Source: a bacterium
GTDB lineage: Bacteria > Patescibacteriota > Minisyncoccia > Phycocordibacterales > UBA5272
Length of the DNA stretch: 39,082 nucleotides
Direction: 5' to 3'
NCBI GenBank assembly: GCA_023267595.1
Contig: JAHFNB010000005.1
Location: 1-39,082 of the forward strand
Shown here: piece by piece, positions 1 through 18,530 of the stretch
Layout: each line of letters opens with the position of its first letter
Position numbering within the stretch: the first letter of the stretch is position 1
The notes under the pieces: generated by a model
The model's input: the letters and a program-made list of their open reading frames with translations, nothing else
What the model was told of the DNA's origin: nothing
Database searches by the model: none
Translations under genes and position numbers: made by a program

Positions 1-587
1 GTTGGACAGGTGATGCATGGCCGTCGTCAGTTCGTGGTTTGAACTGTTCCCTTCAGTGGGGTAACGAACGCAACCCTTATCGTGTGTTACAAGTGTCACA
101 CGAGACTGCCCCGTAATTTGTTCAGAAGAACATTGTGTATTTCACAGGAGACCTCAATCAGATGGTTTTCTCCCAATTTAATAAAATTGGGTCCCCTGTG
201 AAATACATAATAACTTTTGTGAATAAATTACGGGGAGGAAGGAGAGGATGACGCCAGGTCAGCATGTCCCTTTGACATCCTGGGCTACACACATAATACA
301 ATCGCATAGACAACGGGCTGCGACGGGGTAACCCTGAGCCAATCCTTCAAACTATGCGCCAGTTCAGATTGTGGTCTGCAACTCGACCACATGAAGCCGG
401 AATTGCTAGTAATCGCGGGTCAGCTAAACCGCGGTGAATACGTTCTCAGGTCTTGTACTCACTGCCCGTCAACTCAAGGGAGCCGGGGGCACCCAAAGGC
501 TTAGCTTGTCTAGGACTAAGGTGAATTCGGTGACAGGGAGTAAGTCGTAACAAGGCACGGCTAGCGGAAGCTGGTCGTGGATTAATT
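1..587 (+). rRNA. rrs: 16S rRNA, 3'-terminal ~590 nt (5' part lies outside the window)
   Basis: Universal SSU blocks occur in the correct order: GCATGGCCGTCGTCAG, AACGAACGCAACCC, GGAGGAAGG..GATGACGCCAGGTC, GGGCTACACAC, GAATTGCTAGTAATCGCGG, GGTGAATACGTTC, CTGCCCGTCA, AAGTCGTAACAAGG. Helix 45 follows (ACGGCTAGC-GGAA-GCTGGTCGT), then GGAT at 579-582. The exact 3' end is uncertain because the canonical tail is absent. Confidence 0.95.
109..235 (+). other. Expansion hairpin inserted in the 16S rRNA at the helix-40 position
   Basis: It lies between the conserved GAGACTGCC and GGAGGAAGG blocks, where typical bacterial 16S has a ~15-nt hairpin. The arms ccccgtaatttgttcagaagaacattgtgtatttcacaggagacc and gggtcccctgtgaaatacataataacttttgtgaataaattacgggg pair over almost their full length. 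There is no ORF inside. Confidence 0.8.
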
Positions 588-840
588 CAATGTGAAAATG
601 TTCTACACAACTATTTAATAGAGTGTAAGAATCTTGTCGATTATTTGTTTTTAAGATAAGGACTTGATAATGATCCTCAACATTATCCGTGTTACTACGA
701 AATGTAACAAAAGTCGCGCAAGCGCTAGAGTGTGACAAAAGAAAGATAAAAAGAATCACAATGTTTTACGTAATTAAAAAATTATTCTAGATATAAGAAG
801 AATAGTTTTTAAATTATGTTTGTAATGTAAAAATAATTCA

Positions 841-4780: not shown

Positions 4781-5780
4781 TCCCTTTCTACGAGTTGCAC
4801 AAGAATTAGGAAGAAAGCAAGAATATTTTCAGGGTACTGGAGGTAATATTTCTTTGAAACATAATTCTCATGACATGGTGATTAAGTCTTCTGGTATTAG
4901 AGTGCAAGATATGGTGTATGATGAAGGGCTCATCGGAGTTTCTTTTCCAAATATTCGTAACTGCTTTGCTATGGGGCATATGGTGAGTGAAGAAGAAAGC
5001 AATATTACCATTCGAGATTCTGTACTTGTGCGTGATGCGCGCCGCCCTTCTATTGAAACTGGATTCCATGCCATTTTACATAATGCAGTTATTCATTCAC
5101 ATTCAGTGTATGTAAATATTCTTGCATGTTCATCATCTTTTTTTGAATTAGTGGAGAAATTATTTTCTCATACAGATATAGTCTATAGTGTGGTGGAGTA
5201 TGCAGCACCAGGACATTACTTAACACAAAAGGTGAAGCAAAGTATAAGTGATATAAAAAGTAGTAAGCATATCGTCTTTTTGAAAAATCATGGAGTTATT
5301 GCTTCTGCTCTATCACTTTTTGATGCGGTAACGATTCATGAAAAAGTAAATGATATTATTCGTGATTATTTTGGTATTACTGATACTTACCCTATATCTC
5401 AATTGTGTCATAGACAAACTGGTGAGTCAGTAAGCGTTACGCCGTTTCTCTTAGATTTCTTAAAGAATAATAGTTACTATTTTGTACATATCAAAGAGTA
5501 TATGTTGTTTCCAGATTTAATAGTTTTTTGTAAAGATCTTGTTGTTACGGATGATGAATCATGTGATGCAAAAATTGTGGTGAGCATATCTCGTAATGAG
5601 ATTCGTTATAACACAAGCAAAAAAGAAGCACATATCATAGAAGAAAACTTGGTGGCGTGGGCATATATTCTCACCATGATAGAAAAACATAATTTATCAC
5701 CAGTATTTATTTCACAAGAACAAGCAGGAATTATTGAAAACTTAGAATCAGAAAAATATAGAAAAGAATTGGTTAAATAA
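4770..5780 (+). CDS. Class II aldolase/adducin-family protein (FucA/AraD/MtnB-like) with extra C-terminal domain
   Basis: Motifs: GTGGNISLK, VIKSSGI, ETGFHAILH, AVIHSHSVY. It overlaps the upstream stop. Confidence 0.7.
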   Translation: MTYNPFLRVAQELGRKQEYFQGTGGNISLKHNSHDMVIKSSGIRVQDMVYDEGLIGVSFPNIRNCFAMGHMVSEEESNITIRDSVLVRDARRPSIETGFHAILHNAVIHSHSVYVNILACSSSFFELVEKLFSHTDIVYSVVEYAAPGHYLTQKVKQSISDIKSSKHIVFLKNHGVIASALSLFDAVTIHEKVNDIIRDYFGITDTYPISQLCHRQTGESVSVTPFLLDFLKNNSYYFVHIKEYMLFPDLIVFCKDLVVTDDESCDAKIVVSISRNEIRYNTSKKEAHIIEENLVAWAYILTMIEKHNLSPVFISQEQAGIIENLESEKYRKELVK

Positions 5781-5784
5781 TAAT

Positions 5785-6414
5785 TTAGACAAGATGTCTT
5801 TCCCAAGTAGGAATAGTTTCAACTGATGTCATAACAAGATCAAGGTTCATCCCAAGTTGTTTAATCTCTTCTGCATATGCATCAATGTCTTGTGGACGTC
5901 CCCATCTGTCTGGAGAGACTAGTGCAGTTTTAAAGAGAGAAAGACGATGTACTATTTCTTCATTAAGTGGAAGGCGAGTGTTGGTATCGATCCAGACCCA
6001 ATCAAGAAGTGTTTTTCCATCACGTATTTGGGACTCTACATTTTCAATTGGTTCTGCTTCAGAATAGCGTATAGCAAGTTCACGTATTCCTTCTCGTGTT
6101 GCTTTGTAGAGGTACGGAAACTCAACATCCAAAAGAAAATAGTTTTCTTTTGGAATATCGTAATGTGCTGCAAGATTTAAAACACGCTCCTCGTATCCTG
6201 CTTCTTTTATATTAAAGATAATAAAGGAATTACCTTGTATGGTAAATGTTTTTAGATAGTCCTCTAGTGAAACAAGAGTATTTGGATTGGAGATAGGATC
6301 ATGACTTAAGAGTATCTGGTCTCCATACCCACGAATATCAATTTCTACTCCATATTTTGGGTCGAGTTTTGAGAGTTCTTCTATGGTGTTTATTCTGTGG
6401 GCAACTATGATCAT
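5785..6414 (-). CDS. Glycerophosphodiester phosphodiesterase (GDPD)-family protein
   Basis: MIIVAHRINT...VEIDIR...ILLSHDP matches the GDPD HR..E.D..HD pattern. The ORF extends to a GTG at 6471, but the ATG at 6414 fits the family N-terminus. Confidence 0.65.
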   Translation of the reverse strand: MIIVAHRINTIEELSKLDPKYGVEIDIRGYGDQILLSHDPISNPNTLVSLEDYLKTFTIQGNSFIIFNIKEAGYEERVLNLAAHYDIPKENYFLLDVEFPYLYKATREGIRELAIRYSEAEPIENVESQIRDGKTLLDWVWIDTNTRLPLNEEIVHRLSLFKTALVSPDRWGRPQDIDAYAEEIKQLGMNLDLVMTSVETIPTWERHLV

Positions 6415-10826: not shown

Positions 10827-10867
10827 AAATAGTGGCTATTTTGCCCTTTTGATTAAGGTACATAATA

Positions 10868-11800
10868 ATGAGTGCAATTCTCGCTGAAAAGCACATCATC
10901 GATTTCTCCCTTTCTGCCTGCTATGCCGCCATGCTGAATGCATGCGTCGCGATGCATGGCGTGATGAGTATCGAGCAACGGAAAAATACTCTGATTGCAG
11001 GGATGGAAAGCAAGACGAAGAAAGACGGCACGAATGACATGGTGCAGGATGTGACCAGTGAAAGCGTTGCTCGCGCATGTCTCAAAGGATTCCCTGTTCA
11101 CGGGGAAGAGCTCGGCGTGATGTTGACGCATCCGCGCTATGTCGTCTGGATTGATCCGAATGATGGCACACGCGGGTTTCAGAACGGCATGGCAACTTCT
11201 TGTGGCATTACCGCTCTTTACGACAAGATCGATGAGATGTGCATCGCGTGTGTCGTCGTCGAGTGGTCGACGGGACGTGTCTGGATGTACACACCGGAGA
11301 TAGAAGGCACGGAAGTGTTCTACATCGAAGGTAAGGGGTTCAGTGAGCGTCGACGTGTTCGCGTTCACGACGGAGGGCTCGGCGTTGGTACCACAGTTTT
11401 CGTGGACAACTTCCCGAATTTCAAACTGAAGGGAAGTAATAGTTTGACTACGATGGAAAAGGTTACCATCTATGCCAAACTCTTCGGTGGTGGAATAGCC
11501 CAGGTGATGCACACAAGCACGAATGCTGGTCATCACGTTCTTGTTGCTCAAGGTGGTGATGGACACAATGTTCCGGGTGCCATCACTGGTTGTCGTGGTG
11601 GGCCATGGGATGTCGCTCCGGCACTTCTTGTCGCGAAAGCAGGTGGTGTGGTGCGTGGTTTCAAACGCGATGAAGGAAGCAATCACTTTGTCGAAGTTCC
11701 GGCACTTGCGTTTGAGCAACATCACTTTACGGTAACGGCGAACAATGCCGAGACTGCAAGTGTGCTCACCGGAGTCCTCACTAACGGCCAGATTACCTGA
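10868..11800 (+). CDS. Inositol monophosphatase / FBPase-like (IMPase, SuhB/CysQ) family protein
   Basis: Motifs: DMVQDVTSES, HGEELG, WIDPNDGTRGF (DPxDGT), PWDVAPALLVAKAGG (WDxA...AGG). G+C is visibly much higher than the flanks. Confidence 0.75.
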   Translation: MSAILAEKHIIDFSLSACYAAMLNACVAMHGVMSIEQRKNTLIAGMESKTKKDGTNDMVQDVTSESVARACLKGFPVHGEELGVMLTHPRYVVWIDPNDGTRGFQNGMATSCGITALYDKIDEMCIACVVVEWSTGRVWMYTPEIEGTEVFYIEGKGFSERRRVRVHDGGLGVGTTVFVDNFPNFKLKGSNSLTTMEKVTIYAKLFGGGIAQVMHTSTNAGHHVLVAQGGDGHNVPGAITGCRGGPWDVAPALLVAKAGGVVRGFKRDEGSNHFVEVPALAFEQHHFTVTANNAETASVLTGVLTNGQIT

Positions 11801-11821
11801 CCACAATGTGAGGCAATAGGT

Positions 11822-11856
11822 CCCGCTAGTCATTACGATAGCGGGGCTTTTTCTTT
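11822..11856 (+). terminator. Intrinsic terminator
   Basis: cccgcta-gtcattacga-tagcggg followed by gCTTTTTCTTTT. Confidence 0.7.
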
Positions 11857-14340: not shown

Positions 14341-14428
14341 CTAACACATTGAAAAATAAGATTCACAAATAAAGCCGCGGCGAAAGTCAAGGCTTTTTTC
14401 TTTGTCTAATCTCTGTTAGGATGTGATG

Positions 14429-15115
14429 ATGATTGGGACACTCTATATAGTACCGACTCCTATTGGGAATCTAGAAGATATGACACTACGAGCAATTCGT
14501 ATTTTAAAAGGTGTTGATTTAGTCTTGTGTGAAGATACATCTGTTACACAAAAATTATTTAATCATTATGATATTACTACACCAACGAGTGTCTTTTTTG
14601 CACAAACAAAATTAAAAAATATAGATAAGATTACGGGTCTTTTAGAAGAAGGAAAACAAATTGCTCTTGTGTCTGATGCAGGGACTCCGACGATTTCAGA
14701 TCCTGGAGTATTACTGGTTGATAGAGTTCGTAGTGAATTACCTGAAGTAAAAGTTGTTGCATTACCAGGACCATCTGCACTTACCACAGCACTTTCTGTT
14801 TCGGGGATATCATCTGCACAATTTGTTTTCTTAGGATTTTTACCACATAAAAAGGGGAGAGAAACATTGTTTAAAGAAATTGCAGAAAGTAAAAGAACTA
14901 TGGTGTTCTATGAATCGGTGCATCGTATAGAAAAGACTTTAGAATCGTTAAGTGACTGTATTATTGCACCACGCCAAATTGTTATAGCACGAGAATTAAC
15001 CAAAGTGTATGAAGAAGTTATTTTTGGAACAAGTAAAGAAGTAAAAAGTTATTTCAGTAAGAAGAAAGATAAAATACGAGGGGAATTTGTTGTAATTATT
15101 GAAGGGAAAAAGTAG
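14429..15115 (+). CDS. rsmI: 16S rRNA (cytidine1402-2'-O)-methyltransferase
   Basis: Motifs: GTLYIVPTPIGNLEDMTLRA, LCEDT, SDAGTP.ISDPG, GPSA. Three candidate starts exist (GTG 14423, ATG 14426, ATG 14429). TGtTAGGAT at 14414-14422 favours 14429. Confidence 0.85.
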   Translation: MIGTLYIVPTPIGNLEDMTLRAIRILKGVDLVLCEDTSVTQKLFNHYDITTPTSVFFAQTKLKNIDKITGLLEEGKQIALVSDAGTPTISDPGVLLVDRVRSELPEVKVVALPGPSALTTALSVSGISSAQFVFLGFLPHKKGRETLFKEIAESKRTMVFYESVHRIEKTLESLSDCIIAPRQIVIARELTKVYEEVIFGTSKEVKSYFSKKKDKIRGEFVVIIEGKK

Positions 15116-15632: not shown

Positions 15633-16843
15633 AGTTGTTATTTTCAGGGATTGTATTTTTAAGTGTTCTATCCTTATGGGTGGTTAATAGTGGATATCAA
15701 AATATTTCTTTTCTTAAAAAAATTGGTACAGAAGATTATTCAAAACATGAAGTAGGGACGTCTACTCCACTTGAAAAAGTTACAGATTTTATTTCAAAAA
15801 CACTACCAAAAGATACAAAAGTATCTGCAGAAGTCATTGCACCACCACGAGTAGTTACACATATAAAGACTCCAGAACATGTAAAAGCCATTTATATGTC
15901 ATCATGGGTAGCAGGTTCTCCATCAATACGTGCACGATTAGTAAAAATTGCGGATGAGACAGAGATAAATGCAATTGTAATTGATGTAAAAGATAATACA
16001 GGTCTCCTTTCGTGGAATGGACGAATAAATGACTTAAATGATTTTCTCGATGTTCTCCACAGTAAAAATATTTATGTTATTGCACGTGTTGCTGCTTTTC
16101 AAGATCCTCTTTATGTAAAAGATCATCCTGAGCAAGCAGTGCATTCAAAAGCAACAGGGGGTATCTGGAAAGATAATAAAGGTGTCCCGTGGGTGGATAC
16201 GGGGTCCACTGATATGTGGAAGTACATTGAAAATGTTTCCAAAGATGCATATGCACGAGGGTTTGATGAAATTAATCTTGACTACATACGCTTCCCAACA
16301 GATGGTCCACTTTCCGATATGACATTTCCAATTAGTGGTGAACGTGGATTAAAAGATAAGCCAGGTATTGTTTCAGATTTTTATCATTACATTACTGATG
16401 CACTCCATAAAGATGGTATTCCTGTGTCTGGTGATCTTTTTGGTATTATTATGGTGACAAACGTAGATATTAAGACATTGGGGCAAGATATGCATACAGC
16501 ATTAGAAACATTCGATTATGTTTCACCGATGGTCTACCCATCACATTTTTATGCAGGTACTGCAGGGTACCAAAATCCTGCTGCTCATCCTGGAGAAATT
16601 ATTTCTTTTGCGATGAAAGCAGGTGTAAAAATTGCAACTGAAGTTGCTTCAAGTACAGGGCAGGCAACATCAACAATTATTGCAAAATACAGACCCTTTT
16701 ATCAAGACTTTGATATGGGTGCGACGTATACCGCGGAAATGGTACGCGCACAAATTACCGCAGGTGAAAAATTAGGAATCAATTCTTGGATGTTATGGGA
16801 TCCATCGAATCACTATACACCGAGTGCACTGAAGTCTGAGTGA
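15629..16843 (+). CDS. Putative glycoside-hydrolase-like TIM-barrel protein (DUF4015-type), N-terminal anchor
   Basis: Motifs: IYMSSWVAG, INAIVIDVKD, IARVAAFQDP, GFDEINLDYIRFP. Confidence 0.55.
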   Translation: MKLLFSGIVFLSVLSLWVVNSGYQNISFLKKIGTEDYSKHEVGTSTPLEKVTDFISKTLPKDTKVSAEVIAPPRVVTHIKTPEHVKAIYMSSWVAGSPSIRARLVKIADETEINAIVIDVKDNTGLLSWNGRINDLNDFLDVLHSKNIYVIARVAAFQDPLYVKDHPEQAVHSKATGGIWKDNKGVPWVDTGSTDMWKYIENVSKDAYARGFDEINLDYIRFPTDGPLSDMTFPISGERGLKDKPGIVSDFYHYITDALHKDGIPVSGDLFGIIMVTNVDIKTLGQDMHTALETFDYVSPMVYPSHFYAGTAGYQNPAAHPGEIISFAMKAGVKIATEVASSTGQATSTIIAKYRPFYQDFDMGATYTAEMVRAQITAGEKLGINSWMLWDPSNHYTPSALKSE

Positions 16844-16849
16844 TATACT
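16841..16849 (+). promoter_or_regulatory. Extended -10 box, 7 nt before ATG 16857
   Basis: TGaTATACT overlaps the upstream stop codon. Confidence 0.45.
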
Positions 16850-16856
16850 TATTTTC

Positions 16857-18530
16857 ATGAATGATAAGGAAAAAGTTACCTATATAGGTAAGGTTGACTA
16901 TCGTAATAAAGCAATCAATTTTGGTATTAAGGCAGGTGATAGAACTCGTCATACTTACATAATTGGAAAGACAGGAATGGGTAAGTCTACACTTCTTGCA
17001 AATCTTATTATTCAAGATATTCATAACGGTGAAGGAGTGTGCGTGATTGATCCTCATGGTTCATTAGCAGAAATGTTACTTGATCATGTACCAGAATCAC
17101 GTATCAAAGATGTAATATACTTTGCGCCATTTGATGCAGATAATCCTATCGGATTAAATGTCCTTGAAAAAGTAGATAAAGAAAAACGTCACCTTGTGGT
17201 AAATGGCATAATGGCAGCATTTAAAAAAATTTGGGTAGATGCATGGTCTGCTCGAATGGAATATATATTGAATAACATAATGCTTGCACTTCTTGAAAAT
17301 GATGGACAATCGTTACTTGGGGTTAATCGTATGCTTACCGATAAAGAGTATCGTAAGTTTATTGTATCAAATGTTACTGATCCGACAGTAAAAGAATTTT
17401 GGGAAAAAGAATATGCAAACTATTCAGAACGATTTGCACAAGAAGCAGCGCCTGCGATACAAAACAAAGTGGGACAGTTTGTAGGTAATCCACTTATTAG
17501 AAATATTATTGGCCAACAAAAAACATCTATTGATCTTCGTGATGCAATGGATTCAAAAAAGATTCTTATTGTAAACTTATCCAAAGGAAAAGTAGGAGAA
17601 GGGAATGCAAATCTTATTGGTTCACTTCTTATCACCAAGATTTATTTGGCAGCAATGTCTCGTTCTGATGTTGGTCCGTATGAACTTGAGAAATTACCAG
17701 CATTTTATATGTATGTGGATGAGTTTCAAAACTTTGCTAATGAATCATTTGCAAATATTTTATCTGAAGCACGAAAGTACAATTTGGCGCTTACTGTTGC
17801 ACATCAATATGTAGAACAAATGACAGATGAAGTAAAAGCCGCAGTATTTGGAAACGTTGGGACAATGATTGTATTCCGTGTAGGAGCAACGGATGCAGAA
17901 GTTTTTGAAAAGGAATTTGCCCCCAAGTTTATTTTAGATGATATTGTGAATCTTTCTGCATATCAAATATATTTAAGACTGATGATAGATGGGCAAGGTT
18001 CTGCTCCATTTTCTGCTCGTACACTAGATCCTATACAAAAACAACCACAATCCTATGCACATGCAGTTATTGAACATTCTCGTAAAACATACGGAAAATC
18101 ACAACATGAAGTAGAGGAAGAAATTAATGCTTTTTATAGACCTCTTACTCTAGAGAAAAAAGAGGTAGTAAAAGAGAATTATGCTCATGTTGAAAAAGAA
18201 GTAAAAGTGCGTGAAATAAAACATAATACCCCACCAATAAATACAGAAACCAGAAAGTATACTCAAAATTCTAACATAACACATACACAACAACAGAATA
18301 ATCAAGACCCGAGAAGAACGCATAGTTCTCGTCTACAAACACCAGAAAAATCACCAACTTTTGATAATAGGCCACCACTTTCTTTAAAAGAAGCATTAGC
18401 AAAAGCAATGAGTGAAAATATAAAAAGTGAAGAAAAGTTGATACCTCAGAAAGTGCGTATTACTGATAATAAGGAAAAAGAAAAAAAAGAAGTTCCAGAA
18501 GAAGTACTTCGCAAGTTGCTCGATGAGTAA
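16857..18530 (+). CDS. Soluble P-loop ATPase of the TraD/TraG/VirD4 coupling-protein (HerA/FtsK-like) type, with low-complexity C-terminal tail
   Basis: Walker A is IIGKTGMGKST. VIDPHGS follows. Walker B is FYMYVDEFQNF. TVAHQY..Q is also present. No TM segments are seen. The last ~130 aa are a K/E/T/Q/N-rich tail. Confidence 0.65.
   Translation: MNDKEKVTYIGKVDYRNKAINFGIKAGDRTRHTYIIGKTGMGKSTLLANLIIQDIHNGEGVCVIDPHGSLAEMLLDHVPESRIKDVIYFAPFDADNPIGLNVLEKVDKEKRHLVVNGIMAAFKKIWVDAWSARMEYILNNIMLALLENDGQSLLGVNRMLTDKEYRKFIVSNVTDPTVKEFWEKEYANYSERFAQEAAPAIQNKVGQFVGNPLIRNIIGQQKTSIDLRDAMDSKKILIVNLSKGKVGEGNANLIGSLLITKIYLAAMSRSDVGPYELEKLPAFYMYVDEFQNFANESFANILSEARKYNLALTVAHQYVEQMTDEVKAAVFGNVGTMIVFRVGATDAEVFEKEFAPKFILDDIVNLSAYQIYLRLMIDGQGSAPFSARTLDPIQKQPQSYAHAVIEHSRKTYGKSQHEVEEEINAFYRPLTLEKKEVVKENYAHVEKEVKVREIKHNTPPINTETRKYTQNSNITHTQQQNNQDPRRTHSSRLQTPEKSPTFDNRPPLSLKEALAKAMSENIKSEEKLIPQKVRITDNKEKEKKEVPEEVLRKLLDE

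Follow-up and report, generated by a model that had tools for sequence, protein, structure and literature searches.

The anti-Shine-Dalgarno (anti-SD) sequence is among the most conserved sequences in bacteria. The stretch of DNA analysed here, referred to as the window (positions 1 to 39,082 of contig JAHFNB010000005.1, assembly GCA_023267595.1), begins with the 3' part of a 16S rRNA gene in which the anti-SD core CCUCC is missing, and this raises the question of whether the ribosomes of this bacterium truly lack it and, if so, how translation starts. We consider it highly probable that this is the genuine and expressed 16S rRNA gene of a lineage without CCUCC, in which initiation is independent of Shine-Dalgarno (SD) sequences, first cistrons are largely leaderless, and a hairpin formed between the 16S tail and the trailer of its precursor is under selection.

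The 3' end of the 16S rRNA gene

Using the Rfam SSU_rRNA_bacteria covariance model (RF00177) to align the window 16S, we found that positions 1-592 of the plus strand correspond to the 3' 40% of the gene (374 bits, model positions 1029-1533), the 5' side being cut by the contig end. The posterior probability stays high through the last column, and helices 44 and 45 are both intact. Helix 45 (556-579, +) is normal, with CACGGCUAGC (556-565) and GCUGGUCGUG (570-579) on either side of GGAA (566-569), and it covaries over 81 distinct relatives, with 99.5% of cells paired. Positions 579-592, which read GGAUUAAUUCAAUG, match the consensus GGAUCACCUCCUUU column for column, so that the 3' tail GAUUAAUUCAAUG (580-592, +) is equivalent to E. 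coli 1530-1542 and aligns with the consensus GAUCACCUCCUUU. At 585-589, AUUCA takes the place of CCUCC, which forms the anti-SD core at E. coli 1535-1539; the C residues of this core have all given way to A or U in an A/T-rich genome. The CCUCC that a canonical SD-using ribosome carries within 13 nt after helix 45 is absent from GAUUAAUUCAAUG. The Rfam alignment thus agrees with a first-pass annotation of this DNA, which had described a normal helix 45 followed by a tail without CCUCC. That annotation had also stated that no CACCTCC occurs before a terminator hairpin at 841: there is indeed no CCTCC on the plus strand between 238 and 960, the first one after the gene lying at 960, but the hairpin scores as a terminator on the minus strand only.

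To collect relatives, a single genome of each GTDB species was scanned for GTACTCACTGCCCGTCA, a decoding-centre word specific to the lineage, and at least 120 stretches were obtained, most of them, among the matches listed, from metagenome-assembled genomes (MAGs) of Patescibacteria, Paceibacterota or Parcubacteria. The nearest 16S among the matches listed is that of a Paceibacterota member (L066), with 97% identity, and three Candidatus Nomurabacteria sequences (L087, L104 and L116) are 88-90% identical over the whole stretch, including a variable insertion in helix 40. NCBI places the nearest relatives in the Patescibacteria group, the Parcubacteria group and Candidatus Nomuraibacteriota. 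Judged by these sequence matches, the host is a Nomurabacteria-like Parcubacteria/Paceibacteria bacterium (Patescibacteria, candidate phyla radiation or CPR) from groundwater.

The distribution of tails rests on 94 16S ends that carry the lineage signature among the matches listed. Only 11 of these have the canonical CACCUCC and 7 have CACCUCA, while 21 are of the window type (GGAUUAAUUC...) and 55 have other tails without CCUCC, many of them GGAUCAAUUAAACUA. Comparison of the rrs 3' ends therefore shows that the loss is lineage-wide, 76 of the 94 ends having a CCUCC-less tail that is the same as the window's or related to it. The identical tail GGATTAATTCAATGTGAAA is present in at least 11 other GTDB species representatives labelled Nomurabacteria or Paceibacterota, GGAUYAAUU is conserved more widely than GGAUUAAUUC, and the tails form a graded series (CACCUCC, UAUCUCC, UUCUUCC, UAAUUCC, UAAUUCA). 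The idea that anti-SD loss is rare in bacteria, put forward in the first-pass annotation, consequently holds among cultured bacteria but not in Parcubacteria, where the loss is common (76 of 94 ends here) and has already been reported (PMC9297842).

The window is not the only assembly of this locus. Its proteins are also encoded on ENA metagenome contig ERZ27279942 k141_3634044 (L004; 39,416 nt) and on a Logan contig, and the DNA runs containing the stretch come from groundwater, wastewater and freshwater. L004 and the window have different helix-40 insertions and disagree at a few helix pairs, but from about position 440 through the tail and the spacer they are identical, so that the 5' part of the window 16S is strain-mixed and the tail is not in doubt. 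Expression was followed on assembled unitigs from four metatranscriptome runs: depth is in the thousands up to about 582, 0-1,100 at 583-589, 0-530 at 590-596 and about nil after 603. These values fit a mature end some 10-18 nt past helix 45, the canonical position being G592; because unitigs break where related species diverge (582, 588 and 597), this estimate is not accurate to the nucleotide. In none of the four RNA runs was a joint reported between the tail and downstream sequence, and the depth and joint data together argue against an intervening sequence.

Could the tail nevertheless lie outside a functional rRNA, as the product of a misassembly, of a chimeric contig end or of a decaying rrs pseudogene? 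The gene is located at a contig end, and the differences from L004 show that its 5' part is mixed, but the two assemblies agree letter for letter from about 440 to a point past the tail, at least 11 independent species-level MAGs share this tail, helices 44 and 45 are intact and the sequence is abundant in metatranscriptomes. An artefact, already largely refuted by these observations, is therefore extremely improbable. Hardly more probable is an anti-SD supplied elsewhere, either through an intervening sequence after about 582 that would join the tail to a CCUCC further on (for example CAUCUCCUCCAUU, 953-967), or through a second rrs copy. It is true that insertions are frequent in CPR rRNA genes, that a CCTCC is present at 960 (+) and that residual SD motifs precede about 10% of genes. 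However, position 960 falls inside a hypervariable spacer ORF, and no CCTCC is conserved downstream of the gene: 12 of the 22 loci of this tail type have none within 1.5 kb on the rRNA strand, and in the remaining ones its position and context vary. Likewise, an rRNA with a split 3' end would reveal itself by sequence-skipping RNA joints and a conserved downstream exon, and the four RNA runs and the 22 loci gave neither. As for a second copy, the relatives show one lineage-signature match per large contig or chromosome among the matches listed. One relative (L110) gave a second model match at 4909-5186, in which helix 45 and the tail occur twice with a run of N between them; this was rejected as a scaffold-gap duplication and not a second 3' end.

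The same gene has unusual features upstream of its tail. In the decoding centre (453-471), GUACUCACUGCCCGUCA departs from the near-universal GUACACACCGCCCGUCA by A1396U and C1400U (E. coli numbering); this word is common to about 90 Paceibacteria species representatives among the matches listed and overlaps the 1392 'universal' primer site. The loop of helix 40 contains an insertion of about 115 nt at 117-231 (115 inserted bases in the Rfam alignment), which is short or absent in L066 and wholly different between the window and L004. RNA unitig depth is zero at 137-204 with deep flanks, which could reflect excision or a strain missing from the samples.

Translation initiation in the window and its relatives

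SD motifs were counted as GGAG or GAGG at -18..-4, compared with the stretch further upstream, on genes called in a simple manner (longest ORFs, first ATG), and a 49-kb stretch of the low-GC, SD-using Staphylococcus phage K served as the positive control. (An earlier control made of chance high-GC loci from outside the CPR was dropped, since SDs were not shown there, with 12% against 7%, and phage K was substituted.) Phage K has a motif near the start in 50% of its 34 genes and further upstream in 6%. The corresponding values are 12% and 3% in the window-type clade (127 genes), 10% and 6% in other CCUCC-less relatives (246 genes), 9% and 7% in relatives that keep CCUCC (46 genes) and 6% and 3% in the window alone (33 genes), where only 2 of the 33 naively called genes carry GGAG or GAGG at the right place. 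A GGAG-type motif 5-10 nt before most starts, as expected of a canonical SD-using bacterium, is thus a property of the phage and neither of the window nor of its clade. With so few window genes, nothing could be learned from gene-by-gene hybridisation energies between upstream regions and either tail, canonical or observed.

These counts agree with the earlier remark that most window genes lack an SD, and a census that works on phage K detected no enrichment large enough, in the window or in the relatives' loci, to speak against SD-independent initiation. Such initiation, which had been proposed from the tail, is now supported by an expressed and lineage-wide anti-SD loss together with SD motifs near background. 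What does not stand is the idea that tail loss is the sole cause: SD motifs are scarce in the window, as proposed, but they are no more abundant in relatives that have retained CCUCC (9% against a background of 7%, n=46). SD use is very low in the whole group, including its members with an anti-SD, which suggests that SD independence is older than the loss of the tail.

Unbiased k-mer enrichment pointed to another kind of signal just upstream of starts, returning the -10-like words ATAA, TAAT and TATA and, more weakly, GGAG. In the CCUCC-less groups, the extended -10 element TGNTANNNT (TGnTAnnnT) lies 6-9 nt before an ATG in 46 of its 96 occurrences, when 12 would be expected (p=2.5e-17), and 20 of 47 occurrences do so in the window-type clade taken separately (p=3e-7). 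The position is also conserved between orthologues, the box standing 6-7 nt before the ATG of rsmI in 6 of 7 species, and likewise for murB. In the window, a -10-like hexamer is found 5-10 nt upstream of 16 of 37 genes, 8 of these hexamers being preceded by TGN. Boxes that pile up 6-9 nt before the ATG and are conserved in orthologues therefore point to leaderless mRNAs, and first cistrons appear often to be of this kind. Two predicted examples are rsmI (14417-14431, +), with TGT-TAGGAT 6 nt before the ATG at 14429, where orthologues share the geometry, and the gene with TGA-TATACT 7 nt before its ATG at 16857 (16841-16859, +), which falls within the clade-wide positional peak. Other genes with a TGN-extended -10 box 5-10 nt upstream start at 2020, 11876, 12605, 21896, 27897 and 36802 (the last on the minus strand). 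With this geometry, the apparent AGGA before rsmI is best read as part of the TAGGAT -10 box and not as an SD, and the GAGGA that precedes 5785-6414 (-) is similarly read as a promoter element, located between a TGTATACT box and the predicted transcription start. Many other window genes overlap a neighbour or start within 13 nt of it.

A predicted hairpin across the maturation site

If the tail no longer binds mRNAs, what keeps it conserved? The minimum-free-energy fold contains a mini-hairpin, UUCA-AUG-UGAA (586-596, +), whose 5' arm consists of the anti-SD-equivalent bases, whose loop (590-592) is the canonical maturation site and whose 3' arm is made of the first 4 nt of the trailer. In members with a canonical tail, it is the anti-SD that pairs with bases just 3' of it (CUCCUU-UCU-AGGGAG), and equivalent stems are built from other letters elsewhere in the clade, such as CCUC/GAGG, AUCUCC/GGAGAU, UUCC/GGAA, UUCCA/UGGAA, UUUCA/UGAAA and the window's UUCA/UGAA. 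Nine of the 11 canonical-tail relatives have an anti-SD that can pair with an SD-like AGGGAG, AAGGAG or AAGGA 3 nt further on in the trailer; the canonical-tail relatives include L005, L011, L021, L055, L062, L067, L073, L115 and L121.

A permutation assay, using one representative per distinct 5' half and shuffling the 3' halves among lineages, gave a dG of -3.2 kcal/mol for matched halves and of -1.3 kcal/mol for permuted ones when the window family was taken together with canonical and variant tails (p<1e-4), and of -2.1 against -0.8 kcal/mol when only tails without any CCUC were used (p=1e-4). A covariance model built on window-type sequences was also aligned to 95 ends: 4 of 4 pairs are changed on both sides and 92% of cells are paired, in an alignment that is fitted to the model, allows long loops and leans towards structure. 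Both analyses replaced a MAFFT alignment of the tails, which was set aside because gapless tails put the hairpins out of register. Isolated 24-nt tails folded alone showed no significant stability.

Covariation links the two arms across the clade, so that the target of selection seems to be the structure of the pre-16S rRNA at its maturation site and not the letters of the anti-SD, and the likely role of the hairpin would be in 3'-end maturation. This fits with two observations from the literature. In the SD-blind Flavobacterium johnsoniae, ablation of the anti-SD impairs 16S processing (PMC13000453), and Era, the assembly GTPase that binds GAUCACCUCC (PMC10582724), is mostly missing from Paceibacteria (PMC12641178). 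We thus propose, as a tentative idea to which we give somewhat less than an even chance, that the tail is shaped by pre-rRNA processing and not by mRNA binding, with the loop as the maturation site and with a stem that was kept by compensation while CCUCC turned into UUCC and then UUCA.

Two other accounts of the replacement tail have to be compared with such a role in processing. According to one of them, the tail drifted neutrally after losing its function, its hairpin and its conservation reflecting shared ancestry and an A/U bias. The change of every core C to A or U in an A/T-rich genome is what drift would produce, and a stem of 4 bp that alone folds at about 0 kcal/mol and that the GGAUCAAUUAAACUA group lacks is easily credited to chance; but matched halves outpair permuted ones even without CCUC, as the dG values above show, paired insertions preserve the stem (UUCA/UGAA against UUCCA/UGGAA) and species whose spacers cannot otherwise be aligned have an invariant tail. 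Drift is therefore unlikely in our view, although it deserves far more weight than the second account, which is very unlikely and in which the SD system would have changed instead of being lost, the new tail acting as a different anti-SD for a new, A/U-rich mRNA motif before start codons. Conservation of the tail, with GGAUUAAUUC in 21 species representatives and GGAUYAAUU more widely, would suit such a system, as would 6-mers complementary to the tail that occur 10 times near starts and 3 times far from them. However, tails scrambled without changing their composition perform equally well in 19-22% of trials, the unbiased search near starts yielded -10-like words and GGAG only, and duplexes of the AUUAAU type are very weak. 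A position-specific mRNA complement of the variant tail, the mark of an alternative SD/anti-SD pair, was thus not found upstream of the starts compared here, and according to Amin et al. 2018 none of the organisms lacking an anti-SD had a variant SD to match (PMC6107228).

Residual SD sites, neighbouring genes and known systems

About 12% of the genes of the window-type clade keep textbook SDs at the correct spacing (GGAG near:far 13:1), at sites such as AAAGGAGG, AAGGAGA and CAGGAGG, which a ribosome without an anti-SD cannot use. The 15 SD-led genes of this clade have a G+C content 4.8 points above that of their locus (p=5.5e-6), they are shorter than others (median 174 against 274 aa, p=1e-4) and for most of them no Pfam family was found. 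The few GC-elevated window genes with GGAG-type motifs, which had been singled out as a tension in the first-pass annotation, are thus real and have counterparts in relatives. The likeliest, though hypothetical, reading is that these accessory genes were recently acquired from SD-using donors, in which case the SD would be an unselected passenger.

Two such units lie directly behind the 16S gene. The spacer (600-1913) is a GC-elevated island (0.42-0.44 against 0.34) that varies between species and contains small ORFs with classical promoters, SDs and terminators. On its minus strand, an ORF of 117 aa (879-1232; GC 0.40, no Pfam family) has GGGAG (1242-1246) 9 nt before its ATG and is followed by a G+C-rich hairpin (840-867; 12 pairs, with a T-run on the minus strand only) that scores as the terminator of this convergent ORF. 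At this same position, L007, L101 and L104 also have ORFs of 110-130 aa opposite the 16S, with no mutual homology detected. On the plus strand, a leadered cassette (1299-1737) can be read from the letters, with a promoter TTGACT-17-TATATT (1299-1327), GGAGG (1349-1353) before a 77-aa ORF (1358-1591), GGAG (1593-1596) before a 29-aa hydrophobic ORF (1602-1691) and a final hairpin (1710-1737).

Closer to the 16S end, a second trailer hairpin (600-632) is followed by a T-rich run (641-657), the whole spanning 600-657 (+) in the fold. L116 and L033 keep part of it, with different inner pairs and compensating changes, and close relatives all share UCUUGUCGA (632-640) without variation; hairpin and T-run are possibly a processing stem or the terminator of an unlinked rrs. 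The 16S is followed at a distance of 1.3 kb by a tRNA-Ile(GAU) gene (1914-1991, +), which a separate promoter-like site (1875-1902) precedes, and then by protein genes. The 16S is not linked to a 23S gene, and relatives are arranged alike, with the tRNA 0.3-1.3 kb after the 16S; no 23S was found in their 8-kb loci, to about 7 kb downstream of the 16S (L104, L010, L033, L066, L069, L099, L028, L064 and L075). Most of the window beyond this point is a long cluster for cell-envelope and glycan biosynthesis (2615-35354), with several glycosyltransferases, nucleotidyl transferases, epimerases/dehydratases and methyltransferases, a carbamoyltransferase, a polysaccharide synthase/flippase-like protein, a Wzy_C protein, MurB and large family-less membrane proteins. 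Within it, the gene at 10868-11800 (in a segment at 10853-11833) has 52% G+C against 34% for the genome, a weak match to the inositol-monophosphatase family and long ORFs on both strands; it has no SD and a -10-like box 8 nt upstream, and it was probably transferred recently. The window contains no ribosomal protein operon.

Taken together, the data suggest the following order of events. SD independence would have arisen first, while CCUCC was still present, and would have relaxed selection on the sequence of the tail, whereas selection would have continued on the pre-16S hairpin in which the anti-SD-equivalent bases pair with the start of the trailer. The tail may then have eroded stepwise with compensation, through CUCCUU/AGGGAG, CCUC/GAGG, UUCC/GGAA, UUCCA/UGGAA and UUCA/UGAA. 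Ribosomes without CCUCC would be unable to dock mRNAs by SD pairing, so that initiation would be SD-independent: on first cistrons, an extended -10 box 6-9 nt before the ATG would make the transcript begin at or beside the start codon, and downstream cistrons, tightly packed or overlapping, would allow coupling.

Several points weigh against this explanation. The mature 3' end is known from assembled unitigs that break where related species diverge, and hence not at nucleotide resolution; 39 kb of the genome were covered, which leaves room for a second rrs copy; and the textbook SDs kept by about 12% of clade genes are at odds with a ribosome unable to read them. Leaderless starts are predicted from promoter geometry, the mRNAs of the window being absent from the RNA runs. 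The mini-hairpin is thermodynamically weak, as described above, and the relatives that form the large GGAUCAAUUAAACUA group lack it; the comparison group with canonical tails is small (46 genes).

That some Parcubacteria have lost the anti-SD has been published before, so that the window is a further member of this set and adds detail rather than a new phenomenon. Tsurumaki et al. 2022 (RNA 28:1041) detected the anti-SD motif CCTCCT in only 48% of Parcubacteria, a figure for Parcubacteria as a whole, and noted that the motif-less set overlaps the subgroup lacking uL1 (rplA) and that SD helices are thought not to form there (PMC9297842). The window belongs to the same lineage and also misses CCTCCT at its 16S 3' end; while that study gave the rate of motif detection and the overlap with uL1 loss only, the present analysis concerns the tail, the hairpin, the SD census, the promoter geometry and the residual SD-led genes. 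In the literature searched, we found no description of the replacement tail, of the covarying hairpin or of low SD use in relatives that keep CCUCC, nor of the leaderless promoter geometry or of a class of SD-led, GC-elevated accessory genes.

Among cultured bacteria, the anti-SD is missing in 128 of more than 20,000 taxa, chiefly among some Flavobacteriia, Mycoplasma and insect endosymbionts, and no compensating SDs were found in them (PMC6107228, PMC3457768). Like Chryseobacterium, Elizabethkingia, Riemerella, Blattabacterium, some Mycoplasma, Carsonella and Hodgkinia (PMC3457768, PMC6107228), the window has a normal helix 45 followed by a 13-nt tail without CCUCC, and it shares with these scattered genera and endosymbionts the lack of SD enrichment and of any compensating variant SD. 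Unlike them, it belongs to another phylum and to a large free-standing radiation of environmental, episymbiont-like bacteria, in which the replacement tail is itself conserved. Genome-wide SD-independent initiation is also known from Bacteroidia (Jha et al. 2021, PMC7797042; Naeem et al. 2026, PMC13000453), whose tail has a second role in 16S maturation that parallels the hairpin proposed here; Bacteroidia, however, keep CCUCC, hidden under bS21/bS18/bS6 and used for rpsU autoregulation, whereas here the sequence is gone. Mitochondria similarly lack an anti-SD and have mRNAs whose 5' end is at or beside the start codon, a leaderless state that we infer for this lineage, but they rely on dedicated factors and a much reduced rRNA, while the window has bacterial extended -10 boxes of the sigma-70 type.

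What does this mean for these bacteria? With a large environmental radiation that does without an anti-SD, nature provides an experiment on the recognition of start codons in the absence of mRNA-rRNA pairing. In terms of annotation, SD-based start prediction is wrong for such genomes, in which purine-rich words of the TAGGAT type are promoter boxes and not ribosome-binding sites, and in which perfect SDs, unreadable to any resident ribosome, persist before about 10% of the genes, these being short, GC-elevated and accessory. If the hairpin were confirmed, the role of the tail in processing would be separated from its role in mRNA binding. If the processing account were true, the lineage would offer a natural evolutionary series in which these two roles are split, which would help explain why the anti-SD is conserved in SD-blind Bacteroidia.

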